From contig JBAYHJ010000001.1 in NCBI GenBank assembly GCA_041666225.1, positions 1,881 to 65,880 on the forward strand: a stretch of DNA of 64,000 nt, read 5' to 3'. Numbering within the stretch: the first letter of the stretch is position 1; each line of letters begins with the position of its first letter. Of the stretch, positions 1 to 18,900 are shown piece after piece. A program made the position numbers and the translations under genes. The notes below the pieces were generated by a model that worked only from the letters and a program-made list of their open reading frames with translations, was not told the origin of the DNA and searched no databases. Source of the stretch: Minisyncoccota bacterium (GTDB taxonomy: Bacteria > Patescibacteriota > Minisyncoccia > Phycocordibacterales > UBA9973).

Positions 1-153
1 ATTAAGTCATCCATACTAAGAACATTAATGGATGAATCCCGCGCTGAGTTAATATAACTTTTAACCTCAGTTCCATTTCCTAGAAAGATAGGGTCCTGTT
101 TAACTATTTCGCTAAATTCCTTGATTTTTAAATTTGTTTTCATCTTTTTTGGT
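1..153 (-). CDS. hypothetical protein, N-terminal part (gene continues beyond window start)
   Basis: ATG at 153-151 on minus strand; translation MKTNLKIKEFSEIVKQDPIFLGNGTEVKSY... open to window edge; not recognisable as rpsN/rpsH. Confidence 0.4.
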
Positions 154-157
154 TTTA

Positions 158-210
158 TTGGTTTTCACAAAAGATAAACATTTATCTCCTCTGAAAACCA
201 ATAAAACCAA
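158..210. promoter_or_regulatory. perfect 19-bp inverted repeat (ttggttttattggttttca / tgaaaaccaataaaaccaa) with inner palindrome gataaacatttatc, in 5' leader of the minus-strand gene at 1..153
   Basis: read directly from sequence; related half-site ttggttttcaca recurs at 42344-42356 immediately upstream of another minus-strand ATG. Confidence 0.5.
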
Positions 211-275
211 ATATCAAAGGACTTAATTTCTGGTGGTATTATATCACACAAATAGCCATTTTGTCAACCCATATT

Positions 276-301
276 AAAAACCCTTATTTCTAAGGGTTTT
301 T
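276..301. terminator. intrinsic terminator hairpin aaaaaccctta-tttc-taagggttttt downstream of rplE (bidirectional)
   Basis: perfect GC-containing stem flanked by A/T runs. Confidence 0.7.
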
Positions 302-315
302 AATATTTTTAATTT

Positions 316-855
316 TTATTTCTTAAATGGTACACCGATAAGTTCAAAGAACTCTGTTGCTTCGGCTTTGGTTTTGGCTGTAGTCACAATTGTGACCGCT
401 AGACCAAAGACGTCTTTTAATTCTTCGTCACCTGTTTCGGGAAAGATTGTGTGCTCTTTAATACTCATTGTTAGATTTCCAATATTATCAACAATTTTCT
501 TATCAATACCGCGGAAATCTTTCGTTCGAGGAATAGCCACATTTATTAATTTATCTAAAAATCCATACATCCGTGCACCACGAAGTGTCACCATGACACC
601 AACTGGGTCCCCTAAACGAATCTTGAAAGAAGCAATTGATTTCTTTGCACTTTTTGTGGCAGGGCGTTGACCTGTAATCTTTGCAAGTCTTTCAAGCACA
701 AGTTTATTGTGATCTTTGTTTCTCTTTAGCCCTGAACCAGTACCACTTGCAATCACTACTTTCACCAAGCGAGGTGAAGCCATTACGTTTTTGTAGCCGT
801 ATTTACTCTTGAGTGCTGTATATGCTTTTTTTTCTTTTTGTTTAACTGTTTCCAT
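316..855 (-). CDS. rplE: 50S ribosomal protein L5
   Basis: 179 aa; L5 signature region (LERLAKITGQRP...GFLDKLINVAIPR); position after rplX. Confidence 0.9.
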   Translation of the reverse strand: METVKQKEKKAYTALKSKYGYKNVMASPRLVKVVIASGTGSGLKRNKDHNKLVLERLAKITGQRPATKSAKKSIASFKIRLGDPVGVMVTLRGARMYGFLDKLINVAIPRTKDFRGIDKKIVDNIGNLTMSIKEHTIFPETGDEELKDVFGLAVTIVTTAKTKAEATEFFELIGVPFKK

Positions 856-899
856 TGTATTTTAAATTCGTAATTCTTAATTCTTAATTCGTAATTACT

Positions 900-1118
900 T
901 TAGTCTCTTTTAGCAACATTTGATACGTGTATTGGCATTGCCATTTCTAAAATCTGACTGATATCGCCTTTCTTTTTAGCCTTGTGAGCTTTCTTTCTCA
1001 TGTTTACACCTTCAACAACCACTTTATTTTCGGCTGGCATAGCTCTTAGAACTTTACCTTTTTTGCCTTTGTTTGCTCCAGCGATAACTATTACATTGTC
1101 TCCTTTCTTAATCTTCAT
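900..1118 (-). CDS. rplX: 50S ribosomal protein L24
   Basis: 72 aa, KOW motif MKIKKGDNVIVIAG; operon position. Confidence 0.9.
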   Translation of the reverse strand: MKIKKGDNVIVIAGANKGKKGKVLRAMPAENKVVVEGVNMRKKAHKAKKKGDISQILEMAMPIHVSNVAKRD

Positions 1119-1160
1119 AGTATTTTAATTCTTAATTCGTAATTATTAATTCGTAATTAC

Positions 1161-1532
1161 TTATATAACTTCTTGGGCTAATGAAATAATTTTCTGATAC
1201 CCACGCTCTGCAAGCTCTCTTGGGATAGGACCAAATACGCGACCTCCTTTTGGATCAAGTTTATCTTTTTCGAGAATAACTACAGCATTGTCATCGAAAC
1301 GAATATAAGAACCATCTTTTCGGCGATATGACTTCACTGTTCGAACAACAACCGCTTGACAGACATCCTTTTTCTTAATTCCTTTTCTTGGTTCTGCTAC
1401 TTTAACAGATAAGATAACTTTATCACCAATACCAGCATAACGACGACGAGATGATCCAAGCACCTTGAAAATCTTTCCGATCTTTCCTCCGGCGTTGTCT
1501 GTGATATTTACAATTGTTCCATCTTGAATCAT
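1161..1532 (-). CDS. rplN: 50S ribosomal protein L14
   Basis: 123 aa MIQDGTIVNITDNAGGK... typical L14. Confidence 0.9.
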   Translation of the reverse strand: MIQDGTIVNITDNAGGKIGKIFKVLGSSRRRYAGIGDKVILSVKVAEPRKGIKKKDVCQAVVVRTVKSYRRKDGSYIRFDDNAVVILEKDKLDPKGGRVFGPIPRELAERGYQKIISLAQEVI

Positions 1533-1539
1533 ATAATTA

Positions 1540-1785
1540 TTATGCTATTACTTTAAAATGCTTATCTTTTGAAATAGGTTTTGTTTCTTCTATTTCGACA
1601 ACATCCCCTATCTTTTTAATATTCTCTTCATCATGTGCCTTGTATTTCTTTGTTTTCTTTATACGTTTACCATACTTTTTGTGTTCAACGAAGCGAGTAA
1701 CCTTAACAACAATAGTTTTATCCATTTTGTCTGAAGTAACTACTCCTTTTAAAATTTTATTTGTTTTTTTGATTTTTGTTTCCAT
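1540..1785 (-). CDS. rpsQ: 30S ribosomal protein S17
   Basis: 81 aa; S17 OB-fold pattern ([17 protein letters not shown]...YKAHDEEN). Confidence 0.85.
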
Positions 1786-1795
1786 AATGATTAGT

Positions 1796-1872
1796 TAATC
1801 AAGTTATAAAGTTTTTAAAGTTGAAAGTAATTTCTTCTTTATAACTTTATGAACTTTTTACTTTATAACTTC
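1796..1872. repeat. MITE-like ~75-bp element copy 1 with terminal inverted repeats AGTTATAAAG / CTTTATAACT; occupies the rplP-rpsQ spacer where rpmC (L29) normally lies
   Basis: near-identical copies at 3438..3511 and 10861..10949, all in same orientation. Confidence 0.7.
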
Positions 1873-1873
1873 G

Positions 1874-2290
1874 TTATCTAGCAACTACGCGAGTAGTAAC
1901 TGGTAATTTTGTTCCTGCTTTACGAAGAGCTTCTTTGGCTGTCGCTTCAGGAACACCATCAACTTCAAATATTATTCGGCCTGGGCGAACATCTAGACAG
2001 TATCCTTGTGGATCTCCTTTACCTTTTCCCATTCCTACTTCAGCTGGCTTTGCTGTAAAAGGTCGGTCAGGAAAAATTCTAATCCACATTCTACCAGTCT
2101 TTCCAAGTGTTCTTGAAGTAACCTTACGTGCTGATTCTATCTGATTTGCGCGGACACGTCCACCACTTGTGGCTTTGAGGCCATATGATCCAAAAGCCAC
2201 TGTAATACCTCGAGTATCAGGAGTAACCTTAGTCATATCAGTACGACCTGTTTGCCATTTTCTAAATTTTACTTTCTTTGGTGTTAACAT
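1874..2290 (-). CDS. rplP: 50S ribosomal protein L16
   Basis: 138 aa MLTPKKVKFRKWQTGR... canonical L16. Confidence 0.9.
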   Translation of the reverse strand: MLTPKKVKFRKWQTGRTDMTKVTPDTRGITVAFGSYGLKATSGGRVRANQIESARKVTSRTLGKTGRMWIRIFPDRPFTAKPAEVGMGKGKGDPQGYCLDVRPGRIIFEVDGVPEATAKEALRKAGTKLPVTTRVVAR

Positions 2291-2298
2291 AAAATATT

Positions 2299-2991
2299 TT
2301 AATTACTTTTATCATTTCTACTTGTTGAAGTAGCAGTAGGAGCAGAAAAGACTTCTCCACGATATATCCAAACTTTAATACCAATATCTCCATAACTCAT
2401 ATGAGCCTTTTCACGAGCAAAATCAACATCAGCGCGGAATGTTTGAAGTGGAATTGAACCACGTTTGATTTGTTCACTTCGAGCAATTTCGGCTCCACCC
2501 AAACGGCCTCCCAAGTAAATACGCGCTCCTTTTACTCCTCGAGCTGACATTACTTTTTCAATAGCTTGTTTGATAACACGACGATATGGTAGACGTTTTT
2601 CAAGACCTTCGGCAATAGAGCAAGCCACAATAGCTGCATCAGCATCTGGATTTGTAACTTCAAGAATATCAAATTTAAAATCTTCAGGAATTGCAATACC
2701 TTTTCGATTTAGGGTGTTTACCATCTCAGTCTTTAGTTTACTAACACCTTCACCTGAACGGCCAATAATCATACCTGGACGAGAAGTATAAACCATTATT
2801 CGTGTAGCTTTTACACTTCTTTCAATTTCAATACGAGAAATATAAAAACCTCGTAGTTTCTTTGTTAAAAATTCACGAATAACTACATCACTTTGTAAAA
2901 GAGTTTTGTATTTTTTATCAGCAAACCAGCGTGATTTCCAATCGCGGAGGGTTACTAGTCTATGAGCATATGGGTGAACTACTTTTGACAT
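2299..2991 (-). CDS. rpsC: 30S ribosomal protein S3
   Basis: 230 aa, KH + S3 C-terminal domain (GRLGGAEIARSE). Confidence 0.9.
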   Translation of the reverse strand: MSKVVHPYAHRLVTLRDWKSRWFADKKYKTLLQSDVVIREFLTKKLRGFYISRIEIERSVKATRIMVYTSRPGMIIGRSGEGVSKLKTEMVNTLNRKGIAIPEDFKFDILEVTNPDADAAIVACSIAEGLEKRLPYRRVIKQAIEKVMSARGVKGARIYLGGRLGGAEIARSEQIKRGSIPLQTFRADVDFAREKAHMSYGDIGIKVWIYRGEVFSAPTATSTSRNDKSN

Positions 2992-2997
2992 AAATAA

Positions 2998-3429
2998 TTA
3001 AGCTTTTGTTTCTTTAGTTTTTTCCGACTTTTTAACTTTTGATTTAATTGCTTTTTTTTCTACTTTTTCAGCCTTTTTAACAGTTTTTACTTTTTTAGCT
3101 TCAACTCCTTTTTCTATAAGAGTAAGCATGACATGACTTGTACGCTTATTTATACGAGATGCCGATCCACGAGCACGAGGCATACTACGCTTTAAAACGA
3201 TACCCTTATTTACTGTTACATTTTCAACATATAGGCCTTCCACTGCAATACCAGCTTGTTTTGCGTTTGCAATAGCTGAAGCGAGAAGTGTCTGGACTGG
3301 GCCAGAGGCTCTCTTTGGTAATGTATCAAGAATTAGAATTGCATCAGCAACCCTTTTGCTTTTGATTAGTTCCGCTACAAGGCGAACCTTGCGGGGGGAC
3401 TGTCTGTAGTTTTTAAGAAATGCTTTCAT
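2998..3429 (-). CDS. rplV: 50S ribosomal protein L22 with Lys-rich C-terminal extension
   Basis: 143 aa; L22 core MKAFLKNYRQSPRKVRLVAELIK. Confidence 0.85.
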   Translation of the reverse strand: MKAFLKNYRQSPRKVRLVAELIKSKRVADAILILDTLPKRASGPVQTLLASAIANAKQAGIAVEGLYVENVTVNKGIVLKRSMPRARGSASRINKRTSHVMLTLIEKGVEAKKVKTVKKAEKVEKKAIKSKVKKSEKTKETKA

Positions 3430-3437
3430 GATTTAGT

Positions 3438-3511
3438 TTATCAAGTTGTAAAGTTTTTAAAGTTGAAAGTAAATTCTTCTTTATAACTTTATGAACTTTC
3501 TACTTTATAAC
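3438..3511. repeat. MITE-like element copy 2 (rpsS-rplV spacer)
   Basis: tatcaagttgtaaagtttttaaagttgaaagtaaattcttctttataactttatgaactttctactttataactt, ~90% identical to 1796..1872. Confidence 0.7.
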
Positions 3512-3856
3512 TTACTTCTTCTTGGAATCAACTGCGGCCTTGGCTGATTTTGATGCGGTAATTTCGGCTTCTTTCTTCTTCATTTCTAATTCTTTCTGCA
3601 TCTTACCTCCGTGTCGGACAAATTTTCGTGTAAGTGAGAATTCTCCAAGTCTGTGTCCTACCATATCTTCACTTACTAGTACTTCTACGTGGGTCTTTCC
3701 GTTGTGAACACCAAAGACAAATCCAACCATTTCTGGGGAGATTTGACAGGCTCTTGCCCAAGTCTTAATCATCCCTGTTTCAATAGGTTTTTTACCGGCA
3801 ATCTTTTTTAATAGCCTTTCATCAACGTATGGACCTTTTTTAAGTGATCGTGTCAT
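3512..3856 (-). CDS. rpsS: 30S ribosomal protein S19 with Lys-rich C-terminal tail
   Basis: 114 aa; S19 core [15 protein letters not shown]. Confidence 0.85.
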
Positions 3857-3931
3857 ATTGTATAAATATAAATAAGCTCTTTTGAGCTCGTGGAATTCAT
3901 GTTAACAAATATAAGATAGAGAGTCAAGTGT

Positions 3932-4342
3932 TTACAAAAACACTACTATTTTCGGCAAAAAGATTATTATCCCTATAACACCAGCCACTATTACAGATAT
4001 TAGAACTGCTCCTGCAGCTACGTCTTTTGTGTCTTTTGCATAGGGGTGAAAAGTAGGAGAAGTTAAGTCAATATCAATCTCAAAAGCGGTATTTAGTGCT
4101 TCAGCAATAATGACTAGACCTATCGAGAAAATTATCATTACCCATTCAATATTTGATATTTTCAAAATAAAACCTAAATAAATAGCCAATATCGCAAAAA
4201 ATATATGAGCCCAGGAGTTGTGAGTAGACCGAATAAAAATACCCAATCCTCGCCATGCATTTCTTGTGCTTTTCAATCTAGCCACAATTGAAAATCTTTT
4301 CTTCTCTGATATTTTTTTATCCATTTTCCTATTATACATCAA
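3932..4342 (-). CDS. dgkA: diacylglycerol/undecaprenol kinase (DgkA family) membrane protein
   Basis: 136 aa, 3 TM helices, DgkA motifs RNAWRGL...HNSWAH and AEALNTAFEIDIDL. Confidence 0.7.
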   Translation of the reverse strand: MMYNRKMDKKISEKKRFSIVARLKSTRNAWRGLGIFIRSTHNSWAHIFFAILAIYLGFILKISNIEWVMIIFSIGLVIIAEALNTAFEIDIDLTSPTFHPYAKDTKDVAAGAVLISVIVAGVIGIIIFLPKIVVFL

Positions 4343-4384
4343 AAAAGCCCCAACCGTAGTCGGGGTATTGATATTTTAATGGGA

Positions 4385-5131
4385 TTAAGTTATTCTTTTT
4401 TTTCTAGCTGGTGTAAGACGATTAACTGTCCACACGATTAAACTTGCTATAATAATTCCAGCCGATCCGAAATAAAAAAAGAAAATGGAGGAAGGGATTA
4501 TTAAATAAAAGAACACAAACAACAAAGCAATAATCATTCCCCCTGATATTCGCCGGGCAATTTTCTCTATGTCGTCAAAAGAAAGAATTAAACAAGCATT
4601 TACAATTGGAATAGCAAGTATTATCCAACAAAATGTCACCAATGTTATATTTTCTTTTGGCGATCCAAAATATAACCACACTAATTCTATTACAGACAAT
4701 ACAATTAACATCGCTGCCAAAACAAGACTCCGCGTTGAATTGTTTTTAACAACAAACCCCCAATAAAGAAATATAATAAACAACACTACCCCAGCCATTG
4801 ATGAATCTCCCATTGAAGAAGAAATATCCTTAGCGAACTGAGTACTTACTGGTACATTTTTGTGAAGTTTTTCATTGTATAACAGCCCGGCGCCTTGTAC
4901 AGAATCTATCTTTAAATTGCCTTTATAATGAATAGATTCTTTGTGGAATAAAATGGTAAGCCCATTTTTGTAAGCTAGATCATTCTGTTCCGGAGTTGCG
5001 TCTTTGTAGGCAACTGAATCTGGAGTAATCGATTTATAACTCGATCCCTCCGATGAGGAAGACGTATTGTTTTTGAAGTATAAAAATACTCCCAAAGACA
5101 ATATCAGGGTAATTAAAAAAAGATTTTTCAT
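4385..5131 (-). CDS. membrane protein, signal peptide/N-terminal anchor plus C-terminal multi-TM domain
   Basis: 248 aa, hydrophobic N-terminus and 4-5 predicted TM segments. Confidence 0.55.
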   Translation of the reverse strand: MKNLFLITLILSLGVFLYFKNNTSSSSEGSSYKSITPDSVAYKDATPEQNDLAYKNGLTILFHKESIHYKGNLKIDSVQGAGLLYNEKLHKNVPVSTQFAKDISSSMGDSSMAGVVLFIIFLYWGFVVKNNSTRSLVLAAMLIVLSVIELVWLYFGSPKENITLVTFCWIILAIPIVNACLILSFDDIEKIARRISGGMIIALLFVFFYLIIPSSIFFFYFGSAGIIIASLIVWTVNRLTPARKKRIT

Positions 5132-5436
5132 GGTTTATTTTTTTAAAATGTTTGCCTTTAGATTACTCCTCATAAAACTTTTGTCAACCACATGATTTTG
5201 ATATATAATGAATTTAAATATTCTTTAAAAATTGTTTTTCTGTCAGACCGCACAAGGTTGAATCAGGTAAAAACTCTAACCAGAGCTTCGTGTCTTTGAC
5301 ACTTAAAGCTATCCTACTAACTGAATCCAAATTTTTTGGTTTCATAACACTTATCAAAGTATTGTCTTAATACTTTTGCTTAAACTAAAAACTTGTATAA
5401 GTATGAATGAAAAACTAAAAAGACAAAAAAGGGAAA

Positions 5437-5781
5437 TTGCACGGCTTCAAAAATAGAGCAGGTTGGAACGATGAACATCATATTAAAACACCTTGTTCAA
5501 GAGGTGGTGAAACAATCGATTCAAATTTACTTTTAATTGATGTCTACCGTCACGATGCGTGGCATTTACTTTTTAGTAATCAAACATTGCGCGAAATAAT
5601 TGCACACCTAAAAAACTACTGTAGCACTAAAGATTTTTTGCTTTCAGTTAACAATTACTATAAGCACCCTGCTTTTCGTTTACTATTTGGGAGTAAACCA
5701 CTAAACGAAATAATAGCATTACTACTAAGAATACAACATGCAAAAGATTCGCAACGAATTAGAATAAAACTAGCTGCATAA
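5437..5781 (+). CDS. hypothetical protein with internal duplicated motif (LLFSNQTLREIIAHL / LLFGSKPLNEIIALL); TTG start
   Basis: ORF-track entry begins at TTG; plausible -35/-10 (ttgtcaa..N17..tatataat) at ~5176-5210; hairpin terminator 5787-5816. Confidence 0.3.
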   Translation: MHGFKNRAGWNDEHHIKTPCSRGGETIDSNLLLIDVYRHDAWHLLFSNQTLREIIAHLKNYCSTKDFLLSVNNYYKHPAFRLLFGSKPLNEIIALLLRIQHAKDSQRIRIKLAA

Positions 5782-5819
5782 AATTAAAAGTCGTTCTGGA
5801 AACAGAACGACTTTTTAGT

Positions 5820-6548
5820 TTACCGAAGCCTTGCTTCGGTAGGTTCTATTTCTTCTATCTCTAACCATTCAAATATTTCTTTCTTGAAAATATTTGGGTC
5901 CTCAAAATAATCAGGGAATTTCTCTTTATTTAAAATCAAATTTTCTGGTCTTTTAGATAAAAGATAATCATTATAACTACTCCATTTGTATGAATTAAGA
6001 AAATTAATAGCTTCTGTTTTATTATTTATCCCTACTTCCTTCCAGTCAGATTGAATCAATTTAATAGGATTTAAGTGTATATATGAAAATAAATATTTTG
6101 CTTGTATTTCATCTTCAATATGAATAGATTTAAATTTACCTTCAAATAAAGACCCTGTTCTGTTATGTTTTTTATTAAAATATTTTGCATATGCGGTACA
6201 GAGTTTTCCCATAAATTCAGTTATATTATTCCTCTCTTCATCTTTCCCATTAGACCTACCGAAGCCTTGCTTCGGTAAAGCTATTAAATACAAGTGGAAA
6301 TGGTTGGGCATCAGTACCCATGCACCAATAGCTACTAACTGGTCCCCCCTTTCAAAATCCCAAGCACTTATTTTGGGTTGAATGATATCATCTTTAAAAT
6401 TAATTCCTTTGGTTGAATTACAAAGAAATAAAAGCTTGATAAAGCGATCTCTATCTTCATCATCAAGAAAGATTATTTGTTTATTGTTTCCTCTATTGTA
6501 AATATGATAATATTCACCATCCACAAGTGGAACTTTTCTTAAAGACAT
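5820..6548 (-). CDS. REP-associated tyrosine transposase (RAYT, IS200/IS605 TnpA-like HuH-Y1), copy 1
   Basis: 242 aa; N-terminal YHIYNRGNNKQIIF, HuH motif LMPNHFHLYL, C-terminal WSSY...Y motif; flanked and interrupted by REP1 palindromes. Confidence 0.8.
   Translation of the reverse strand: MSLRKVPLVDGEYYHIYNRGNNKQIIFLDDEDRDRFIKLLFLCNSTKGINFKDDIIQPKISAWDFERGDQLVAIGAWVLMPNHFHLYLIALPKQGFGRSNGKDEERNNITEFMGKLCTAYAKYFNKKHNRTGSLFEGKFKSIHIEDEIQAKYLFSYIHLNPIKLIQSDWKEVGINNKTEAINFLNSYKWSSYNDYLLSKRPENLILNKEKFPDYFEDPNIFKKEIFEWLEIEEIEPTEARLR
5821..5841. repeat. REP1 palindrome taccgaagccttgcttcggta (copy a)
   Basis: perfect 8-bp arms; copies at 6256..6276, 6573..6593, 24612..24632. Confidence 0.8.
6256..6276. 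repeat. REP1 palindrome (copy b), located in-frame inside the RAYT-1 ORF (translates LPKQGFGRS)
   Basis: sequence identity to other REP1 copies. Confidence 0.8.
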
Positions 6549-6572
6549 ATATTACATTATACTACAAAGGTT

Positions 6573-6593
6573 TACCGAAGCAAGGCTTCGGTG
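6573..6593. repeat. REP1 palindrome (copy c, loop inverted: taccgaagcaaggcttcggtg)
   Basis: sequence. Confidence 0.75.
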
Positions 6594-6641
6594 GATATCT
6601 CGTTTCCCATGATTTTTTATTAAGTTAATTTTAATACCTTA

Positions 6642-6671
6642 ATAATACCCCCCCCCGAAAAATGAAGTCAG
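6642..6671 (-). promoter_or_regulatory. putative sigma70-like promoter with 9-nt poly-G in spacer (minus strand: ctgact-N18 incl. G9-tattat) upstream of RAYT-1
   Basis: C9 tract at 6648..6656 on plus strand; same architecture at 7748..7777, 23865..23895, 25464..25494. Confidence 0.45.
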
Positions 6672-6677
6672 CACATC

Positions 6678-6703
6678 AAAAAATACCCTTGCGGGTATTT
6701 TTT
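6678..6703. terminator. hairpin terminator aaaaaataccc-ttgc-gggtatttttt (duplicate of the rplB terminator at 7825..7851)
   Basis: sequence. Confidence 0.65.
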
Positions 6704-6760
6704 GATGATAGATTTTATATTTTTTTCTAAAATTATTTTGCTTTTCCAACTTTTCGGCGG

Positions 6761-6893
6761 GAGACAATCCACATGTTTGAGTATTTCTTTGGTGTTCTTG
6801 TCTTCTGTCCTTTTCCTGTTGGTTTACCCCACATACTTTTGGCTCGGCGTAGTCCGCGTCCTTGGCGTCCTTCACCTCCGCCGTGGAAACTCG
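6761..6893 (-). pseudogene. duplicated 3' fragment of rplB (encodes ...GGGEGRQGRGLRRAKSMWGKPTGKGQKTRTPKKYSNMWIVSRRK), no start codon
   Basis: near-identical to 7984..8116 of the intact rplB; the overlapping ORF-track entry 6639..6944 is in a different frame and judged spurious. Confidence 0.75.
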
Positions 6894-7016
6894 CAATAAC
6901 GGTTCATTAGAATTCCTTAATATATTATGAGATAAAACAAGCAAAAACGGTTATTTTAGAAAGATTACAAACAAAAAGCAACCACCTTAATCACAGTTAC
7001 ACTAAGATTATATTAA

Positions 7017-7745
7017 TTAATATTTATGTTTATTTTTTTTATTGGCAAGATCACCACGTAAATTTTCTATTAAATAAGTTGATTTGCCTGATTTTTCATT
7101 ATTTTTTTCGTATTTTATTGCTAATTTATCAAACATCTCTTCATTTTCGTCATCTACTGCTTTATAAAGTGCCCTGGAAATATATTTGTCTTCTAAGTGT
7201 AAATGAGCATTTTCAAGAGACCATGTTCTTTCAATTAAATTTTTACCAACAGCTTCATCGAGAATATTTTTTACTTTCCTTTCATCAAATTTTATACCAA
7301 GTTCAATTGCCCTTTCTGCCCAGCAATATAAATTAAACGGTGTTTTATAATCATGTCCCTCCTTTTCTTTTTTATAGAGTTCAATAAAATCATTAATATA
7401 TCCCAATATTTCAATAGGATCATTTACTCTATATTCTTTTGATTCTTTTATTACTTCTAGTAAAAAAGCGTCAACGTCCTCACTTTTTAACTGACCTACT
7501 TTTTCTTGAGTTCCATCTTTAATAATCTTACTTTTTTCATTAAATTCTCTATTTTCTATCTCTGCCTCATCTCGAACATTTTCAGATTCTTGAGCAAGAT
7601 TATTAAGCTCAAAATAAGCCTCCCTTGCATCTTTCCCCCCCGCCTCAATTTTTTCTTGAGTAGCTATTGTTCTTTTATTTAAATCCTCTGCATTAGTAAA
7701 ATTTTCCATATAAATATTCAAAAATATTATTAATAATATACACAT
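7017..7745 (-). CDS. hypothetical acidic/Lys-rich protein (likely true start MENFTNAEDL at ~7711)
   Basis: 242-aa ORF; driven by poly-G promoter 7748..7777; contains an internal G7 tract at ~7626-7632. Confidence 0.55.
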   Translation of the reverse strand: MCILLIIFLNIYMENFTNAEDLNKRTIATQEKIEAGGKDAREAYFELNNLAQESENVRDEAEIENREFNEKSKIIKDGTQEKVGQLKSEDVDAFLLEVIKESKEYRVNDPIEILGYINDFIELYKKEKEGHDYKTPFNLYCWAERAIELGIKFDERKVKNILDEAVGKNLIERTWSLENAHLHLEDKYISRALYKAVDDENEEMFDKLAIKYEKNNEKSGKSTYLIENLRGDLANKKNKHKY

Positions 7746-7747
7746 CT

Positions 7748-7777
7748 ATAGTACCCCCCCCAGACATACATTGTCAA
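7748..7777 (-). promoter_or_regulatory. putative poly-G spacer promoter (minus strand ttgaca-N18 incl. G8-tactat)
   Basis: C8 tract 7754..7761 on plus strand. Confidence 0.45.
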
Positions 7778-7824
7778 TAAAGATAAAAATATAAAAAACT
7801 ATCAAACCAACTTTTTTAAAAAAC

Positions 7825-7851
7825 AAAAAATACCCTTTCGGGTATTTTTTG
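7825..7851. terminator. hairpin terminator downstream of rplB (aaaaaataccc-tttc-gggtatttttt)
   Basis: sequence. Confidence 0.65.
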
Positions 7852-7956
7852 TTGATAGAGTTTTTTATTTTTAAGGCTATTTTGCTTTTCCCTGCCCGCC
7901 CTCGTGTACTCGGGAGCAGGCGGGCAACTTTTCGTTCTATTTGATATGACTAAATA

Positions 7957-8799
7957 TTATTTAGCCTTACCTACCTTCCTTCGAGAGACAATCCACATGT
8001 TTGAGTATTTCTTTGGTGTTCTTGTCTTCTGTCCTTTTCCTGTTGGTTTACCCCACATACTTTTGGCTCGGCGTAGTCCGCGTCCTTGGCGTCCTTCACC
8101 TCCACCGTGTGGATGGTCAACTGGGTTCATGGCTGTACCACGAACTGTTGGGCGAATTCCTTTCCATCGTGAACGTCCTGCTTTTCCAAAGTTTTGAAGT
8201 TTGTATTCACTGTTTGAAACTTCACCAATACATGCCCAGGCATTTTCTGAAACTTTTCGAACTTCAGTTGATGGCATTTTGATATTTGTATACCCAAGGT
8301 CATTGGCAACAACTTGTCCAAATGTACCTGCGGAACGAGCCAATTTTGCTCCATTACCAGCTTTAATCTCTACGTTATACACAAATGTTCCAACTGGAAT
8401 TATTTTAAGAGGTAAACGATTTCCAACTGCAAGTGGAGCTGTTTCGGAAACTATAAATTTATCTCCAACTTTCATTGATTTAGGTACAACCACGTATCTT
8501 TTTTCTCCGTCAGCGTAGCAAGCTAAACTGATGAAGGCATTACGATTTGGATCATATTCTATTGAAGTTATTTTGGCAGGAATATCGTGCTTGTTGTACA
8601 TGAAATCGATTTCACGATAAAGACGCTTATGTCCACCCCCTTTATGGCGAGTAGTGATACGTCCCTGATTATTTCTTCCAACAGATCTCTTAAAACCTTT
8701 TGTTAAAGATTTTTCTGGAGTACTTGTCGTCAACACATTACGGTATGTTACCGTAGTTTGGTGACGCTTTGATGGAGTTGTAGGTCTATATGTTTTCAT
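7957..8799 (-). CDS. rplB: 50S ribosomal protein L2
   Basis: 280 aa; L2 signature (HPHGGGEGR, RNNQGRITTRHKGGGHKR). Confidence 0.92.
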   Translation of the reverse strand: MKTYRPTTPSKRHQTTVTYRNVLTTSTPEKSLTKGFKRSVGRNNQGRITTRHKGGGHKRLYREIDFMYNKHDIPAKITSIEYDPNRNAFISLACYADGEKRYVVVPKSMKVGDKFIVSETAPLAVGNRLPLKIIPVGTFVYNVEIKAGNGAKLARSAGTFGQVVANDLGYTNIKMPSTEVRKVSENAWACIGEVSNSEYKLQNFGKAGRSRWKGIRPTVRGTAMNPVDHPHGGGEGRQGRGLRRAKSMWGKPTGKGQKTRTPKKYSNMWIVSRRKVGKAK

Positions 8800-8801
8800 A
8801 A

Positions 8802-9128
8802 TTATGCGAATGTTATCTTATCTCCTTTTTTCAAATGTACGACCGCTTTTTTTCCACCTTGTTTTACACTTACAATTCCACGACGTGTAACTGTCTTTTT
8901 TGCAATTGTCGTAACTGAAATACGCTCTGGTGTTACTCCGTAAACAAATTTAATGGCTTTTTTAAGTTCATTTTTGTTTGCAGTTTGAGCAACATTAAAA
9001 GTATAAACACCGCGTTCAGCATCAATTGCAGATTTCTCAGTAATACGAGGACCTTTTATAAGTATATGTGTCTTTTCTTTACTTTCTACAACTTCTTTTG
9101 TATTCTTTTTTGTTTTTGTAGTTGCCAT
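8802..9128 (-). CDS. rplW: 50S ribosomal protein L23
   Basis: 108 aa; operon position, L23-like core. Confidence 0.8.
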   Translation of the reverse strand: MATTKTKKNTKEVVESKEKTHILIKGPRITEKSAIDAERGVYTFNVAQTANKNELKKAIKFVYGVTPERISVTTIAKKTVTRRGIVSVKQGGKKAVVHLKKGDKITFA

Positions 9129-9129
9129 A

Positions 9130-9885
9130 TTATTTCTTTTCTATTTTACCACCCAAAAAAGCAATACTTTCTTTTGGCTGTGTAATAATAATATATCTGA
9201 AGGCAAGTAAATCAACAGGATTTATATTTCTGATTTCATCAATCTCTGCTGTTTTAATATTTGCAAAACTTTTCTTTAATGAATCACTTTTTGCTGGTAC
9301 AGTTATGTATAGGTTCGTCTTCTTTCCTCCTGTAATTTTCTCAAAACCTTTTACACCACTTAAATCCTTCACAATAGCGATAGCATCTTTTGTCTTGATA
9401 TTTTTAAGAGCAAACTCTTCCACAAAAAGGATTTGACCTTTCCGCAACTTTTCAGATAGTACTGTAAAGAGTGCCTTGATTTTCATTTTCTTATTTATTT
9501 TTTGTTCGTAAGATTTTTCATTACGAGGTCCGTGAGTTACTCCTCCACCTTTCCAAATAGGAGAGCGGCTTGACCCATGACGGGCTCGTCCTGTTCCTTT
9601 TTGTTTCCAAGGTTTTCTGCCTCCTCCACGAACATCTGAGCGATCCTTAGTATGAGCAACTGGGGTACGAGCATTTGCTTGCATCGCAGTTACGACTTGG
9701 TGAACTAAGTCACCATTCCAAGGTAAACCAAATATTGTTTCTGGTAGTTCAAGTTTTCCAACAGATTTACCTTTTTGATTGTAAACTTCTGTTTCCATAA
9801 CAGCATCACTAACAACTTTAGTTTTCTTTACCGCGGTAGTTTTATTACTTTTTGTAGTTTCTTTTGTAGTCATAAAATTAGCCAA
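9130..9885 (-). CDS. rplD: 50S ribosomal protein L4 (with N-terminal extension)
   Basis: 251 aa; L4 core (GGGRKPWKQKGTGRARHGS). Confidence 0.85.
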   Translation of the reverse strand: MANFMTTKETTKSNKTTAVKKTKVVSDAVMETEVYNQKGKSVGKLELPETIFGLPWNGDLVHQVVTAMQANARTPVAHTKDRSDVRGGGRKPWKQKGTGRARHGSSRSPIWKGGGVTHGPRNEKSYEQKINKKMKIKALFTVLSEKLRKGQILFVEEFALKNIKTKDAIAIVKDLSGVKGFEKITGGKKTNLYITVPAKSDSLKKSFANIKTAEIDEIRNINPVDLLAFRYIIITQPKESIAFLGGKIEKK

Positions 9886-10498
9886 TAATTTCTACGAGCG
9901 TTCCGCGGCGTCCTGGAATCGCACCTTTAATAAGTAATTGATTGTTTTCTGTATCAACTCCGATAATTTCTAGATTTTTGATTGTGATACGATCACCTCC
10001 CATACGACCTCCCATGCGCATTCCCTTTGGAACTTTATTTCGAAGACCTCCTCCGATAGAACCTGGTTCACGTTCTGAGTGTTTTTGTCCGTGTGATCTT
10101 GGTCCTCCGTGAAATCCATGGCGTTTAACAACACCCTGGAATCCTTTACTCTTTGAAATTCCAGAAACAATAACAACGTCACCTTTTGCGAAAGCGCTGA
10201 CAGTTATTTTGTCTCCTTCTTTTATATCTTCAATATCACGAAACTCTCGTAAATGCTTAAATGCACCACCTTCCTTTTCTGTCTGAGATGCTAAAACATG
10301 TCCAAGATGTGCCTTTGTAGCACGACTTGTTTTTTGTTCTTCGAACGCTACTTGTACTGCTGTATAACCATCTACGTCTGGACTCTTAACTTGAGTCACA
10401 ACAAGAGGGCCAGCGGAAATTACCGTTGCTGGAACTGCGGTGCCATCATCTTGAAAGCACTGCATCATATGCTGTTTTTTTCCTAAAATAAATTTCAT
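9878..10498 (-). CDS. rplC: 50S ribosomal protein L3
   Basis: 206 aa; L3 motifs (FKGDVVIVSGISKSKGFQGVVKRHGFHGGP). Confidence 0.9.
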   Translation of the reverse strand: MKFILGKKQHMMQCFQDDGTAVPATVISAGPLVVTQVKSPDVDGYTAVQVAFEEQKTSRATKAHLGHVLASQTEKEGGAFKHLREFRDIEDIKEGDKITVSAFAKGDVVIVSGISKSKGFQGVVKRHGFHGGPRSHGQKHSEREPGSIGGGLRNKVPKGMRMGGRMGGDRITIKNLEIIGVDTENNQLLIKGAIPGRRGTLVEIIG

Positions 10499-10502
10499 AT
10501 AA

Positions 10503-10856
10503 TTACATCATTTTCACATCTATATCAACACCAGATGGTAGTGATAGGTTTGTGAGTGCCTCAATAGTCTTCGCATTTGGATTGAGAATATCGATGACAC
10601 GCTTATGGATTCTTATTTCAAACTGTTCTCGAGCATTTTTAAATACAAACGATGCTCTGTTGACTGTGTATTTTTTAATTTCGGTAGGAAGTGGAATTGG
10701 TCCTACAATCTTTGCATCATAACGCAGAGCAGTATCAATAATCTGCTTGACTGAAGTGTCAAGAATTTTATTCTCATAGGCTCGTACGCGGATACGAAGT
10801 TGTACAACTACATCTTCTTTTCCCTTTTTTGGTTTTAGAACTTTCTTTGTTGTCAT
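10503..10856 (-). CDS. rpsJ: 30S ribosomal protein S10
   Basis: 117 aa; S10 core (IRIRVRAYENKILD...GPIPLPT). Confidence 0.85.
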   Translation of the reverse strand: MTTKKVLKPKKGKEDVVVQLRIRVRAYENKILDTSVKQIIDTALRYDAKIVGPIPLPTEIKKYTVNRASFVFKNAREQFEIRIHKRVIDILNPNAKTIEALTNLSLPSGVDIDVKMM

Positions 10857-10860
10857 GGTA

Positions 10861-10949
10861 CTTAGTTATAAAGTTTGTAAAGTTGAAAGTTTGTAAAGCA
10901 AATGCATTTTTAATCTACTTTATAACTTTATGAACTTTATGAACTTTCT
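10861..10949. repeat. MITE-like element copy 3 (tuf-rpsJ spacer), with extra tatgaactt repeat
   Basis: ttagttataaagtttgtaaagttgaaagt...ctactttataactttatgaactttatgaactttctact. Confidence 0.65.
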
Positions 10950-10951
10950 AC

Positions 10952-12154
10952 TTACTTAATGATCTTAGTAACAACTCCTGCTCCGACAGTTTTACCTCCT
11001 TCACGGATAGCAAAGTGCATAGTTTCTTCTAGGGCTACAGGTGTTACTAGTTTAACCGAGAGTTTAACTGTATCTCCTGGCATAACCATTTCTACACCGC
11101 TCGGAAGTGTTGATTCTCCTGTTACGTCTGTTGTACGGATATAGAATTGAGGTTTGTATCCAGTAAAGAATGGAGTGTGACGTCCTCCTTCTTCTTTTTT
11201 CAAAATGTAAACTTCACATTCGAATTCAGAGTGAGGAGTAACTGTTCCTGGTTTAACAAGAACTTGACCACGAGTAACGTCTTCTTTTTTAATTCCACGA
11301 ATAAGAATACCGGCGTTGTCTCCTGCCATACCTTGTTTTAGGTTTTTATTAAACATTTCAATACCAGTAACTGTTGTCTTTGCAGTATCTTTAATACCAA
11401 CAATTTCAACATCTTCACCGACGTTGATAACTCCACGTTCGATTTTACCAGTCACAACTGTTCCACGTCCTTCGATTGAGAAAATATCTTCAATAGGCAT
11501 TAGGAATGGTTTTGTAACATCACGTTCTGGAACTGGAATATAAGTATCAAGAGCATTTACAAGATCCATGATCTTTACAGCCCAAGCATCTGTATTGTCA
11601 GCTGATTCAAGAGCTTTCAAAGCTGAACCACGAATAACTGGAGCGTTTGCACCATCAAAACCTTGTTTTGTAAGAAGTTCACGAACTTCTTCTTCGACTA
11701 GATCAAGCATGTCTGGATCATCAACCATGTCGCATTTATTTAGAAATACGATTATTTTTGGAACGTTAACTTGTTTAGCAAGGAGGATATGCTCACGAGT
11801 TTGTGGCATAACTCCGTCTGTCGCAGCGACAACGATAACTGCACCGTCCATTTGAGCGGCACCTGTAATCATGTTTTTAATATAGTCAGCGTGTCCTGGC
11901 GCATCAATGTGTGCGTAGTGACGTGCTGGTGTCCAATATTCATTGTGAGAAAGGGCAATCGTGATACCACGAGCTTTTTCTTCTGGGGCTGAGTCAATTT
12001 GATCAACTCCTTTTATTTTAGCACCATATTCACCACCTTGGCGTGCTAAAACTTGTAAAATAGCCGCAGTCAATGTAGTTTTGCCGTGATCGACGTGACC
12101 AATGGTACCTACATTAACGTGAGGCTTGTCTCTTTTAAATTCTTCTGCTGCCAT
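10952..12154 (-). CDS. tuf: elongation factor Tu
   Basis: 400 aa; [23 protein letters not shown]-motifs. Confidence 0.97.
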
Positions 12155-12436
12155 ATATTTTTATTGGTTGATAATTTCCAATTTAATTCTTAATTACTAA
12201 TTCGTAATTCTTAATTAATTAAAAGCTACCAACATAAATTATTAATAAATGTACCTCGCCTGTGGCAAGATAACGCAAAAATTGCGATTGACCTACATAG
12301 TAGCAGATTTAAAAATAAATGCAAATAAAGTTAGAACTTCTACTGACCTCCAAAAATAAACCATATAAAATATAGCCATTCTGGCTGACTCCGAACTTGA
12401 GACAATGTTCAAATGAGGATAACTGAGGTAAAAGAA

Positions 12437-12467
12437 TAGGGCCGACTAAAAATGATTAGTCGGCCCT
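12437..12467. terminator. hairpin agggccgacta-aaaatga-ttagtcggccct
   Basis: sequence. Confidence 0.6.
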
Positions 12468-12473
12468 TTATAT

Positions 12474-13277
12474 TTATAATTCAAGGACAAGTAATCCTTT
12501 CTTAATCAAAAGTTCAATAACATCTTTCCTCCAGTTATATTTATATATAAATTCGGGAATAGTCATAAGCTCTCTTTCAAGAGCATCTTCTTTGGGAATA
12601 AATTCTGCCAATTTACACTCTTTCGAAGCATAAAACAACATAATTTTTTCTTTACCCTCAAATTGAACTGTTGCAAATGGAATAGCCTCACCAATTGTAA
12701 TTCCTGCTTCTTCGTCTGCTTCTCTTCTAAGAGAATCCATTAAATTTAAATCAATAGATCCAACATGTCCACCAGGGATATCCCAACCCCGTTCATTCCT
12801 TGCTGCTACTATTTTATTATCAACAAAACCAATAAGAAATACAGCGCTTACATTTTTTATATCTGGCAATAATTCCGTATTAATAAAACGAATTTTAATA
12901 TTCTCAATTGAAAACTCATTTACTTCTTTTATCACAGCTTCATTACCATTTGAAATCATATGTACGATGATACCATTTTTAAGACCAGAAGTTAATTCTT
13001 CATTTATATGAATGACGAATTCAATTCTATCATCCTCATAAACTGAGTATTGCAAATGATCATGTGAGCGTTTATTCGGATGCGTAATGATAAGACCAAT
13101 CTTCTTATTCATTTTTAGTGACAAGGAACTTAGAAATGTAAATAATGATTCCCCCAATTCATGTTTAACAACAAAAATACGAATATACTCATTCATGTAT
13201 CCTTCTTGAAAGTCTAAAGTGTATTTTTCTTTCACATTATATTTTTCAATTTGTAAAGTCAATAGATTAGTAAGCAC
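12474..13277 (-). CDS. hypothetical protein with C-terminal Nudix-like hydrolase box
   Basis: 267 aa; ...LRREADEEAGI matches REUxEExGU of Nudix box; N-terminal domain unknown. Confidence 0.5.
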   Translation of the reverse strand: MLTNLLTLQIEKYNVKEKYTLDFQEGYMNEYIRIFVVKHELGESLFTFLSSLSLKMNKKIGLIITHPNKRSHDHLQYSVYEDDRIEFVIHINEELTSGLKNGIIVHMISNGNEAVIKEVNEFSIENIKIRFINTELLPDIKNVSAVFLIGFVDNKIVAARNERGWDIPGGHVGSIDLNLMDSLRREADEEAGITIGEAIPFATVQFEGKEKIMLFYASKECKLAEFIPKEDALERELMTIPEFIYKYNWRKDVIELLIKKGLLVLEL

Positions 13278-13348
13278 AAAATCCCCCTAACGGGGGATTT
13301 TGTGCATACTACCTACTTACTACTTACTACCTGCTACTTATTATTATT

Positions 13349-17335: not shown

Positions 17336-17459
17336 AATAATAAAAAGTTAATAATAATGTTTTTGATTCGTAATTCTTTAAATATTATATCACACAATAT
17401 ATATAAAAAAGATACTTTATCCCCACACTCACTTTACTATATTGTTATTACCCCTTTTT

Positions 17460-17506
17460 GAAGTAGCGAGGTATTTCTTCCGGAAGAAGTAATTCCTCGC
17501 TACAAC
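17460..17506. repeat. nested hairpin gtagcgagg-tatttcttccggaagaagtaatt-cctcgctac; related copy at 30755..30800
   Basis: sequence. Confidence 0.5.
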
Positions 17507-17536
17507 AATAATTCCCCAGAAAATTTCAACAATAAA

Positions 17537-17570
17537 AAAGACTGCTTCAAAAAGAAGCAGTCGATTTCAT
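17537..17570. terminator. hairpin gactgcttc-aaaaa-gaagcagtc downstream of lipoprotein gene
   Basis: sequence. Confidence 0.65.
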
Positions 17571-17588
17571 TTTAATCCAAATAAATGG

Positions 17589-18554
17589 TTATTTCGTTTG
17601 AAGACGTACAAAAGTTTCCCTAGTAGCATCTTGTTGACCACCTGGGTGGTAAACCCAAACCAAAGTATCTTGAGTAATGATGATGTCGAAATTATTATAC
17701 TCATCAACCGTCAATATAGATCCCCGTAAAGTCCATGGACCTTCTTGAGTTCGATCCTCAGTTCCACAACGAATTTCTCCGTTGTCATATACCACTTTTT
17801 TGGGTGAAAAATAAAATGTCCTTAAATCATCTTTCCTGCAATCACTTATAGTTCCTTCATACCAAGGTAATCCGGGTCCATCCTGAAATTCCAACTTAAC
17901 CATTTTCCATGGTCCAGCACAGAGATATGCTTCATCCTGTGTTGGTGGAATTTGTTGTGCTACCACAACAGTGATACTTTCAGTGACTTCACCTCCAGGA
18001 CCTATAACTTTGAAGTCATAAGTCTTAGTTTCGGTAACGGTAAAATTAAACGTTACCGGTGAATTTTCATATTTTATACCATTGAGCTCAAGAGCCCCAT
18101 TGGTAAAAATACAATTTATCACAACTGGTCCTCCAAAGTAAGGAAGGGTATCAATCACTTGGTCATTAAAAGTAAACGAGATGTTGATTGTGGGAGGAAG
18201 AGGATTCGCAGGCACGGTCACCGTCAAATACTTCTGGCTTTTTACACCAGAAGCGTTCTCAACGATAAAGGTAAGGAGTTTAGTCTCACCTTTTTTCATT
18301 GAAAAAATAGTATCTCCGTTTGGGGTTCTAAGATTGTCCCCATTAACAGTTCCTTTAACCACATTTTGCGTGATCCAGGATACCGTTACCGAAACGGTTA
18401 CGCTTTTTGAATCGGTCGTGCCGATAACAAAAGTCGGAGTAATTGTCGGTTTACCCACCGACACGGGTGTTTCTGGCTTATCTTTTTCACATCCTACAAG
18501 CAGCAGGGAGAGAAAAAGACCCAAAAATGCGAGCATTCTCATCATCTTTTTCAT
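17589..18554 (-). CDS. secreted lipoprotein (lipobox LLVGC)
   Basis: 321 aa; signal peptide + Cys lipobox; beta-rich Thr/Val sequence. Confidence 0.7.
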   Translation of the reverse strand: MKKMMRMLAFLGLFLSLLLVGCEKDKPETPVSVGKPTITPTFVIGTTDSKSVTVSVTVSWITQNVVKGTVNGDNLRTPNGDTIFSMKKGETKLLTFIVENASGVKSQKYLTVTVPANPLPPTINISFTFNDQVIDTLPYFGGPVVINCIFTNGALELNGIKYENSPVTFNFTVTETKTYDFKVIGPGGEVTESITVVVAQQIPPTQDEAYLCAGPWKMVKLEFQDGPGLPWYEGTISDCRKDDLRTFYFSPKKVVYDNGEIRCGTEDRTQEGPWTLRGSILTVDEYNNFDIIITQDTLVWVYHPGGQQDATRETFVRLQTK

Positions 18555-18754
18555 GATTTATTTAGTGAATATTTGGATTATTTATTTTTGATAAGATTCG
18601 TTTAAGTTTCTCCCGACAAATTCCTCATCTCTGGAAGTCCGACTTTCTTAATTTTCTATAAACCAACTTAATCAATTTAATGAAGTCTGACTTCCTTAAA
18701 TTTTGAATAAATAGGCTTTTTATCAAGAAAAACTTAAACAAATCCAAACAATTA

Positions 18755-18798: not shown

Positions 18799-18872
18799 TT
18801 TCACTCCATTTATCCACTTTTTATCCCCAGTCCCAAATACCCCCAAAACCCATTAATCCCAAGCCTCCAAAT

Positions 18873-18896: not shown

Positions 18897-18900
18897 TTTG

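Follow-up and report, generated by a model that had tools for sequence, protein, structure and literature searches.

A probable permissive gene slot between rplB and rpsS in the S10 ribosomal protein cluster of a Candidate Phyla Radiation lineage

The S10 ribosomal protein cluster of a Minisyncoccota bacterium (assembly GCA_041666225.1, contig JBAYHJ010000001.1) is split between rplB and rpsS by 4,100 nt of DNA, for which the best-supported reading is a layered, mostly inherited gene slot and not one recent foreign insertion. The stretch analysed here, called the window, comprises 64,000 nt (1,881–65,880 of the forward strand of the contig), and all coordinates are window positions. The minus-strand gene order is tuf (10952–12154)-rpsJ-rplC-rplD-rplW-rplB-[gap]-rpsS-rplV-rpsC-rplP-rpsQ-rplN-rplX-rplE, and the interval 3857–7956 is exactly the space between the rplB stop (7957) and the rpsS start (3856), both on the minus strand. 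A preliminary description of this DNA had placed a break in the rplB–rpsS linkage at these coordinates and had listed dgkA, a membrane protein, a hypothetical gene, a REP-associated tyrosine transposase (RAYT) with REP, an rplB fragment and a gene with a poly-G promoter as its contents; the break is confirmed to the nucleotide and every listed item is present. The same description took the whole for an accessory insertion of ~4 kb. Variable and mobile-like DNA does occur in the interval, in the form of an ORFan, a REP-flanked HUH/Y1 gene and an rplB relic, but the notion of a single insertion does not survive comparison with relatives.

Read in the direction of the operon, the upstream unit ends with an intact rplB (L2; 7957–8799, minus strand; 280 aa; Pfam Ribosomal_L2_N and Ribosomal_L2_C), which is 70–94% identical to its counterparts in 80 relatives and is predicted to be the last gene of its transcription unit. 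Directly after its stop lies a ~77-nt patch (7873–7956, minus) holding a 33-nt GC-rich palindrome (within 7892–7928), then a terminator-type hairpin, T1_B (AAAAAATACCCGAAAGGGTATTTTTT; 7822–7854, minus), and a promoter-like site that matches the consensus as TTGACA-18-TACTAT (7748–7777, minus), with a G8 tract (7754–7761) closing the spacer. This site is upstream of orf230 (7017–7709, minus), an acidic, all-helical ORFan whose real start is at 7709 within an open reading frame (ORF) reaching 7745. Beyond it are a non-coding relic of the rplB 3' end (6729–6885, minus), comprising the last ~51 codons with the stop at 6732–6734; T1_A, a second copy of the rplB terminator hairpin with the upstream flank TCTATCA (6674–6707, minus); and another promoter-like consensus match, CTGACT-18-TATTAT (6642–6671, minus), in which a G9 tract (6648–6656) closes the spacer upstream of a REP and the RAYT-like gene.

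The REP-RAYT-REP unit (5820–6593, minus; gene 5820–6548) is separated by the hairpin T2 (5786–5815, strand not assigned) from the convergent hyp114 (5437–5781, plus), which encodes a small basic protein antisense to the operon. Next come memb248 (4385–5131, minus), encoding a polytopic membrane protein, and the hairpin T3 (4348–4365), followed by a T-tract and a TATAAT box (4331–4336), this stretch (4331–4365, minus) being the predicted leaderless promoter of dgkA (3932–4324, ORF call to 4342; minus), a DgkA-family lipid kinase gene. The interval closes with a predicted rpsS promoter, TTGACT-17(TG)-TAACAT (3899–3927), and a leader hairpin, GAGCTC-AAAA-GAGCT (3874–3889), then a U-rich stretch (together 3874–3927, minus). 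rpsS itself (S19; 3512–3856, minus; Pfam Ribosomal_S19, E=9e-32) is predicted to be the first gene of the downstream transcription unit.

Three contigs from other assemblies cover this arrangement (loci outside the window carry L numbers throughout). L081, an ENA contig obtained from another sample, matches window positions 1–10749 colinearly at 99.70% identity, with 32 single-nucleotide polymorphisms and without indels; L082, a contig from JGI, has 100% identity to 6942–8621 and crosses the rplB–orf230 junction; and L083, a contig from Logan, has 100% identity to 6850–7851, running out of orf230 and into the rplB fragment at its 5' edge. Because L081 is colinear and L082 and L083 are identical over parts of the slot, the arrangement is real and not an assembly artefact. 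A 157-nt repeat is able to mislead a short-read assembler, and a chimera joined at the duplicated rplB 3' end, or an error of binning, could in principle have produced the locus, but the same order over 10.7 kb in L081 and the independent coverage by the other two contigs make such an origin extremely unlikely.

The composition of the interval, which had been proposed as a check on foreign origin, gave no sign of it. GC content and GC content at third codon positions of the interval genes lie between −1.3 and +0.9 standard deviations of the 58 window ORFs, codon-usage distance is ordinary, and GC skew is negative across the interval just as in its flanks. Scans of the slot proteins against Pfam, NCBIfam and PHROG found no integrase, phage or plasmid families, only the RAYT-like HUH gene. 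No tRNA was found near the interval, and an Rfam scan of it gave no match at threshold, only sub-threshold matches driven by terminators.

Relatives were collected by a scan with the rplB protein, keeping one genome per species, which gave 80 loci, all from metagenome-assembled genomes (MAGs) of Candidatus Nomurabacteria, Paceibacterota or other Patescibacteria. Twenty window proteins were placed in these loci by tblastn, over ~20 kb around rplB per relative, and loci were termed in-clade where rplB was at least 80% identical and out-clade at 70–79%. rplB and rpsS flank the interval in 68 of the 68 loci that hold both genes. Of the 48 in-clade loci, 47 have a gap of more than 300 nt between them and 32 one of more than 1 kb (median 1636 nt, range 133–8555 nt), compared with 6 and 3 of the 20 out-clade loci, respectively (median 134 nt, range 67–8126 nt). 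From tuf to rplE there are 12 further junctions, and these stay at or below 300 nt in every locus, leaving rplB|rpsS as the only variable junction in this run of genes. The rpsS–rplB adjacency, held up in the preliminary description as a highly conserved linkage, is kept in those distant relatives where the genes lie ~125 nt apart and regularly broken in the clade.

The minimal state of the slot is rplB-T1-dgkA-rpsS with a gap of ~535–560 nt (e.g. L010, L012, L045 and L057). The gaps hold 182 ORFs, which fall into 72 clusters, and cargo occupies two sub-sites, one from T1 to dgkA (window, L002, L021, L035, L039, L047, L048 and others) and one from dgkA to the rpsS promoter (L007, L013, L014, L017, L044 and others). 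Recurrent cargo consists of pyrimidine-synthesis genes, found in at least 15 loci and assigned by Pfam to OMP decarboxylase (OMPdecase), dihydroorotate dehydrogenase (DHO_dh), Amidohydro_1 (dihydroorotase-like) and phosphoribosyltransferases. Further cargo includes an ECF sigma factor with its partner, a small toxin-antitoxin-like pair, a THDP-succinyltransferase-like gene, an MA-type peptidase, giant secreted proteins and ORFans. In the close relative L006, giant secreted proteins take up more than 10 kb after rplB (11072–19446); their features are SSSDGTKLAA-type repeats, peptidoglycan-binding-like C-termini and an S8-like peptidase region, and dgkA and rpsS were not found within 10 kb of rplB. 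For the window, relatives share the content between rpsS and rplB as far as dgkA is concerned, present between the two genes in 43 of the 48 in-clade loci, and not for the interval as a whole, while hyp114 and memb248 each recur in the same slot of some relatives.

Both edges of the slot carry conserved signal-like sequences. About 47 of 59 in-clade loci have, no more than ~140 nt downstream of the rplB stop, a hairpin with an A-tract, a GC core and a T-tract, whose stems vary compensatorily (TACCC/GGGTA, CACCC/GGGTG, CTCCC/GGGAG, GCGCC/GGCGC). The TACCC/GGGTA-type T1 has two copies in the 64-kb window; the loci of relatives, 1.24 Mb in all, have 31, of which 25 are the post-rplB copy. On the opposite edge, 67 of 68 loci have a promoter-like TTGAC(T/A)-17-TAnnnT ahead of rpsS, commonly TTGACTTTATTTTTAnATTTGCTAGTAT (the consensus can also be rendered as TTGAC(T/A)-17-(TG)nTAGTAT), and these include the distant relatives in which rplB and rpsS are ~125 nt apart. 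Since the rpsS promoter is conserved even where the two genes are nearly adjacent, it is probably older than dgkA, and the rplB/rpsS split likewise appears older than the cargo, a further point on which the idea of one ~4-kb insertion fails. Between this promoter and the start codon, in-clade loci carry a hairpin, GAGCTC-N3-5-GAGCT, then TTATTTATATT, U-rich (~55 relatives' loci), a candidate attenuator or ribosomal-protein leader to which Rfam has no match. Inside the slot, the window dgkA has its TATAAT box ~6 nt before the ATG at 4324, and a TATAAT-like (TAnAnT) box precedes the dgkA ATG by 5–8 nt in 42 of 48 loci, by exactly 6 nt in 33, irrespective of the DNA further upstream; on account of this spacing, a leaderless dgkA transcript is predicted. 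The hairpins would accordingly serve to terminate transcription and the boxes to initiate it.

The most constant resident of the slot is dgkA. Its product is placed in the DgkA family (diacylglycerol/undecaprenol kinase) by a match to PF01219 (E=3.7e-31; 107 bits versus a gathering threshold of 22.3) over profile positions 2–102 of 102, with hydrophobic segments of transmembrane type at residues 36–83 and 99–130, and lipid kinase activity is predicted. dgkA identity tracks rplB identity across the loci (Spearman 0.68, p=1.3e-7, n=48), which, together with its presence in 43 of 48 in-clade loci, argues for a vertically inherited resident.

Two further genes are shared with a smaller set of relatives. 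The hyp114 family has 13 proteins with the invariant motif HH..P.SRGG...N...D.YRH.A.HLLF, and full-length homologues occupy the same position, in the same antisense orientation and directly after the rplB terminator, in L039, L084, L085, L089 and L094; in L094, the T2 hairpin is likewise found 3' of the homologue. The first ~11 codons of hyp114 (MNEKLKRQKRE; region 5404–5440) are in another frame relative to the homologues, the shift falling in an A6G3 run, a feature also present in the independent assembly L081; either hyp114 starts at TTG 5437 or the gene is decaying. An HH...N...H-like pattern had suggested an HNH nuclease, a lead that was dropped, the AlphaFold2 model having a disordered N-terminus, an otherwise helical structure and no fold match, and the protein having no Pfam, NCBIfam or PHROG match. 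No hyp114 relatives were found in IMG/VR. Truncated relatives of 83–86 aa occur on L086, an 11.5-kb ENA contig (ERZ3602258) with many small co-oriented ORFs, an HNH endonuclease, an M15 peptidase and an exonuclease-like gene, and its phage-like look hints at a phage origin of the hyp114 family. The memb248 protein has an N-terminal hydrophobic segment and at least four transmembrane-like segments and belongs to a family of three members, with a 57%-identical homologue directly upstream of dgkA in L090–L093; no relatedness was found between it and the recurrent C2/C7 membrane proteins.

The RAYT-like protein matches NCBIfam REP_Tyr_transpos (NF047646; E=6.6e-10, 39.1 bits versus a cut-off of 80) and Pfam Y1_Tnp (PF01797; E=0.004, 17.7 bits versus 23), has 11,593 relatives at E<=1e-3 and, judged from sequence only, shares a conserved HUH motif (NHFHLYL) and tyrosine motif (YIHLNP) with the proteins of L035 and L018; a sequence comparison with solved structures gave chance matches only. 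The REP hairpin TACCGAAGCCTTGCTTCGGTA occurs at 5821, 6257, 6573 and 24613, with none expected by chance. The flanking copies are inverted, that at 6573–6593 having the loop AAG on the plus strand and that at 5821–5841 the loop CTT, and the internal copy (6257–6277) lies in coding sequence, where it encodes a conserved PKQGFG. Within the 64 kb one copy is outside the RAYT locus, at 24613–24631, directly following a Gp49-like toxin and HTH_3 antitoxin pair (HigB/HigA-like; the whole at 23980–24631). A hairpin-flanked RAYT unit at 79% identity stands directly after T1 in L035, and the REP stems covary between the window and this locus (CCCAAAGC...GCTTTGGG against ACCGAAGC...GCTTCGGT). The empty site of the unit is provided by L094, which has the closest rplB found (98% identity) and reads rplB-T1-23 nt-T2-hyp, where the window has ~880 nt (poly-G promoter, REP, RAYT, REP) between T1_A and T2. 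An 11-nt repeat, TTTTTTGATGT, considered as the target duplication of a 2.3-kb block, was dropped in favour of L094 as the true RAYT-unit empty site.

The segment between RAYT and rplB bears a different kind of trace. The relic (copy A; 6729–6885, 157 nt) is 93% identical to 7953–8109; read from 6885 to 6732, it matches the true rplB end (copy B) at 124 of 125 positions, after which the last 9 codons contain 9 differences. Each of these is synonymous, both copies encoding SRRKVGKAK-stop, and in both T1 and its flank come next. The 5' edge of copy A is not in frame, which makes this copy non-coding, and metagenomes scanned for an intact rplB ending as copy A does gave 0 matches. The direct duplication of the rplB end and T1 brackets a ~1.2-kb segment with a promoter and orf230 (6886–7823), not the whole of 3857–7956, and looks like the signature of a single-crossover (Campbell-type) or homology-facilitated illegitimate insertion and not of transposition. 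orf230 itself found only itself among 5.8 billion proteins, belongs to no Pfam, NCBIfam or PHROG family and, in a single-sequence AlphaFold2 model (pTM 0.43), is helical with no PDB fold match. It looks like a new arrival, the bracketing duplicate being its recombination scar.

A further, smaller insertion is evident at the very end of copy B, where the functional last codons are followed by a 21–22-nt spacer and then by the remains of the former last 8 codons (CGAAAAGTTG...GGAAAAGCAAAATAG), interrupted by the palindrome. The filled site recurs in L006 (96% identity over 76 nt), and empty sites are found in L005, L094 and copy A of the window. The 33-nt GC-rich palindrome folds strongly and is single-copy in the window. 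It was considered as a repeat family and rejected as such, being confined to the window and L006, with a loosely similar element in L027. That element (L027 17170–17232) is ~52 nt long, consists of a GC-rich hairpin (CCCGCCT...GGGCAGG) and an AT-rich tail, sits at the start codon of rpsS between two copies of ATGAC, and resembles in its design the patch at the rplB stop of the window and L006. A different palindromic insert, of ~80 nt, lies between the rplB stop and T1 in L002.

The poly-G layout is not confined to the slot. Four window sites match a consensus of TTGACA/CTGACT, 9–10 nt, G8–9 and TAnnAT, with their G-tracts at 6648–6656, 7754–7761, 23871–23879 and 25470–25478, two of the four being inside the interval. 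The two sites outside the interval have a nearly identical leader of ~60 nt, with ORFans of 133 and 200 aa downstream. An assembly-level comparison of the window, L081, L082 and L083 found no variation in tract length over the tracts covered, and no relatedness was found between orf230 and the other poly-G-driven ORFans.

These features are probably best explained as a permissive slot at an old transcription-unit boundary, with dgkA as a fixed resident and turnover of the other genes. The S10 cluster of this Paceibacteria/Nomurabacteria-like lineage of the Candidate Phyla Radiation (CPR) would have been cut into two transcription units at rplB|rpsS, T1 closing the rplB unit and a separate promoter with a short leader opening the rpsS unit. 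DNA arriving between two such self-sufficient sides should leave ribosomal-protein expression undisturbed, allowing the boundary to gain and lose genes, and it is because each side carries its own signals that the boundary may have become permissive. The window slot would then comprise an old boundary promoter ahead of rpsS; dgkA with its leaderless-type promoter, fixed early in the clade; the antisense hyp114 and memb248, common to some relatives; the REP-RAYT-REP unit, placed between T1 and the hyp114 terminator; orf230 under its poly-G promoter, brought in or relocated by a recombination event in which T1 and the terminal 157 nt of rplB became duplicated; and, finally, the 77-nt micro-insertion with its palindrome at the end of rplB, the coding end having been restored. 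We infer this order of events and the recombination mechanism from the observed gene content, synteny statistics, signal conservation, duplications and empty and filled sites.

Several points weigh against the permissive slot. dgkA is not in the slot in the in-clade loci L004, L026, L027, L036 and L055, and so can be lost or moved; the clade boundary is defined by rplB identity and not by a species tree; and the survey of each relative spans only the ~20 kb around rplB. The promoters and terminators are predictions from consensus and conservation, the promoter rules for CPR bacteria being themselves presumptive. In addition, pyrimidine genes and dgkA may recur because selection favours their co-regulation and not simply because the site is permissive, and the duplicates of T1 around cargo in several genomes are a hint that the site may be actively targeted.

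The last of these points leads to the main rival, in which T1 is an active recombination target or landing pad and cargo enters there by duplicative, hairpin- or homology-directed events, either by a single Campbell-type crossover with a small circle that bears a T1 copy or by the action of an HUH/Y1 enzyme on single-stranded DNA in its folded form. Judged by their numbers in the window and in the relatives, T1-type hairpins are a specific feature of this locus, and orf230 is bracketed by T1 and 157 nt of rplB. Similarly, L035 has a 57-nt direct repeat around RAYT and a peptidase gene, L002 an inverted second T1 and L047 a second T1 directly upstream of dgkA; the RAYT unit lies directly 3' of T1 in two genomes (window and L035); and small palindromes have landed at gene ends that were then restored, at the rplB stop of the window and L006 and the rpsS start of L027, with that of L002 between the rplB stop and T1. 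However, no recombinase is common to the cargo loci, much cargo lies at the dgkA|rpsS sub-site, where T1 is lacking, only 4 of ~12 loci with rplB–dgkA cargo have the duplication, and the REP and T1 sequences are unrelated. The T1 copy beside dgkA may moreover be kept by selection, its T-tract abutting the dgkA −10 box, a role taken by T3 in the window, and selection retaining a terminator after rplB and a T-tract before that box would give the same picture. Active targeting of T1 is therefore considered unlikely. A more specific form, with T1 as a dedicated recombination site for cassettes and small palindromic elements, used in a hairpin-directed, duplicative manner, possibly through an HUH/Y1 enzyme such as the RAYT-like protein and sometimes with gene-end-restoring "patches", is also unlikely; if true, a ribosomal-operon terminator would be a natural cassette landing pad in CPR bacteria.

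Selection for co-regulation, in turn, would make the locus an expanded operon and not a neutral slot, with dgkA (envelope lipid recycling) and the pyrimidine genes of relatives recruited for expression in step with growth. dgkA is indeed present clade-wide, always in the sense of the operon and either just upstream of rpsS or just downstream of rplB, and the pyrimidine genes recur across at least 15 loci. Yet dgkA and rpsS each have promoter-like signals of their own, many slot genes are antisense (hyp114, phosphoribosyltransferases, amidohydrolases), the contents have no common theme, with ORFans, toxin-antitoxin-like pairs, sigma factors and a transposase-like gene among them, and the slot of the window is without pyrimidine genes, all of which renders functional recruitment quite improbable. 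A single recent genomic island of ~4 kb is very unlikely and already contradicted: although the interval does hold an ORFan, a transposase-like gene with REPs and a duplicated, target-like rplB end, its dgkA, hyp114 and memb248 stand in the same slot of relatives, its separate layers have separate empty sites, the direct repeat brackets only the 1.2-kb orf230 segment, no integrase emerged from the slot-protein scans and composition is normal. The permissive slot, with successive residents of different age, is accordingly the preferred reading.

The ribosomal supercluster may contain a second slot of this kind. After rplE, the window has a hairpin (271–306) and a perfect TTGACA-18(TG)-TATAAT promoter match (267–238), and the rplE|rpsH gap of relatives has a median of 972 nt and a maximum of 4863 nt, exceeding 600 nt in 33 of 50 loci, which suggests that this junction is also variable. 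L081 carries an unrelated 150-aa ORF there (10435–11581).

The adjacency of rplB and rpsS is used as a near-universal linkage marker, and an uncultured CPR clade that breaks it regularly, with a fixed lipid-kinase gene and a variable set of others, has implications for CPR genome evolution, the organisation of ribosomal operons and the curation of MAGs. For example, a contig that "leaves" the ribosomal cluster downstream of rplB may be genuine and need not be treated as a chimera in binning. The slot, probably together with the second one after rplE, offers a specific place for strain-level gene flux in genomes with few recognisable mobile elements; its cargo includes pyrimidine-synthesis genes, which are relevant to the metabolic dependence of reduced CPR organisms; and the conserved terminator and promoter signals amount to concrete predictions on CPR transcription. 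A search of the literature on S10-operon insertions in CPR or Parcubacteria returned nothing relevant, and no paper describing the arrangement was found.

Compared with the canonical S10 operon of E. coli and B. subtilis (rpsJ-rplC-rplD-rplW-rplB-rpsS-rplV-rpsC-rplP-rpmC-rpsQ), gene order is the same on either side of the gap, but in the clade rplB and rpsS lie 0.13–8.6 kb apart and rpsS has its own conserved promoter. The clade also differs in that rpmC (L29) is not between rplP and rpsQ, where the gap is 88 nt in the window (1786–1873) and has an in-clade median of 8 nt; in more distant relatives this junction measures ~240 nt, and the out-clade locus L062 encodes a Pfam-confirmed L29 there.

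Individual layers resemble known systems to different degrees. Like the REP/RAYT systems that are said to pair REP sequences with a tyrosine transposase, the unit in the window has a single-copy HUH/Y1-type gene (HFH, YIHLNP), inverted flanking hairpins and stems that covary with those of the L035 orthologue, although the gene falls below the equivalog cut-off, only one further REP occurs in 64 kb, one REP lies in coding sequence (PKQGFG) and the protein is ~90 aa longer than the 146-position model owing to a C-terminal extension. The orf230 segment is comparable to insertions by homology-facilitated illegitimate recombination, as this process has reportedly been described, or by Campbell-type crossover, in that the inserted DNA lies within a direct duplication of the recipient rplB 3' end and T1, with one functional copy and one truncated relic. 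It differs in that the copies are near-identical for 125 nt and then show 9 synonymous differences, so that an additional event would be needed, for which gene conversion and the 77-nt patch are candidates. Phase-variable promoters are known in which a homopolymer occupies the −35/−10 spacer, for example those of Neisseria porA and opc; the four window sites share with them a G8–G9 tract at the 3' end of an 18–19-nt spacer, but not variation in tract length, which is absent among the four assemblies or two strains.

At the level of the whole slot, an integrase-mediated island would be expected to have a recombinase at one end, att repeats bounding the whole and deviant composition, and the interval of the window has none of the three. 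A closer parallel is found in integration hotspots and flexible islets, hotspots of horizontal transfer reportedly being sites of chromosomal integration between core genes. As in those, core genes flank variable content while the neighbouring junctions are invariant, and the content mixes metabolic genes, ORFans, toxin-antitoxin-like pairs and remnants of mobile elements. Unlike them, the slot described here lies inside the normally contiguous S10 cluster, has a fixed resident in dgkA, involves no integrase or prophage and is bounded by a conserved terminator and promoter pair. The rplB|rpsS slot thus adds a new case to a type of genome flexibility that is already known.

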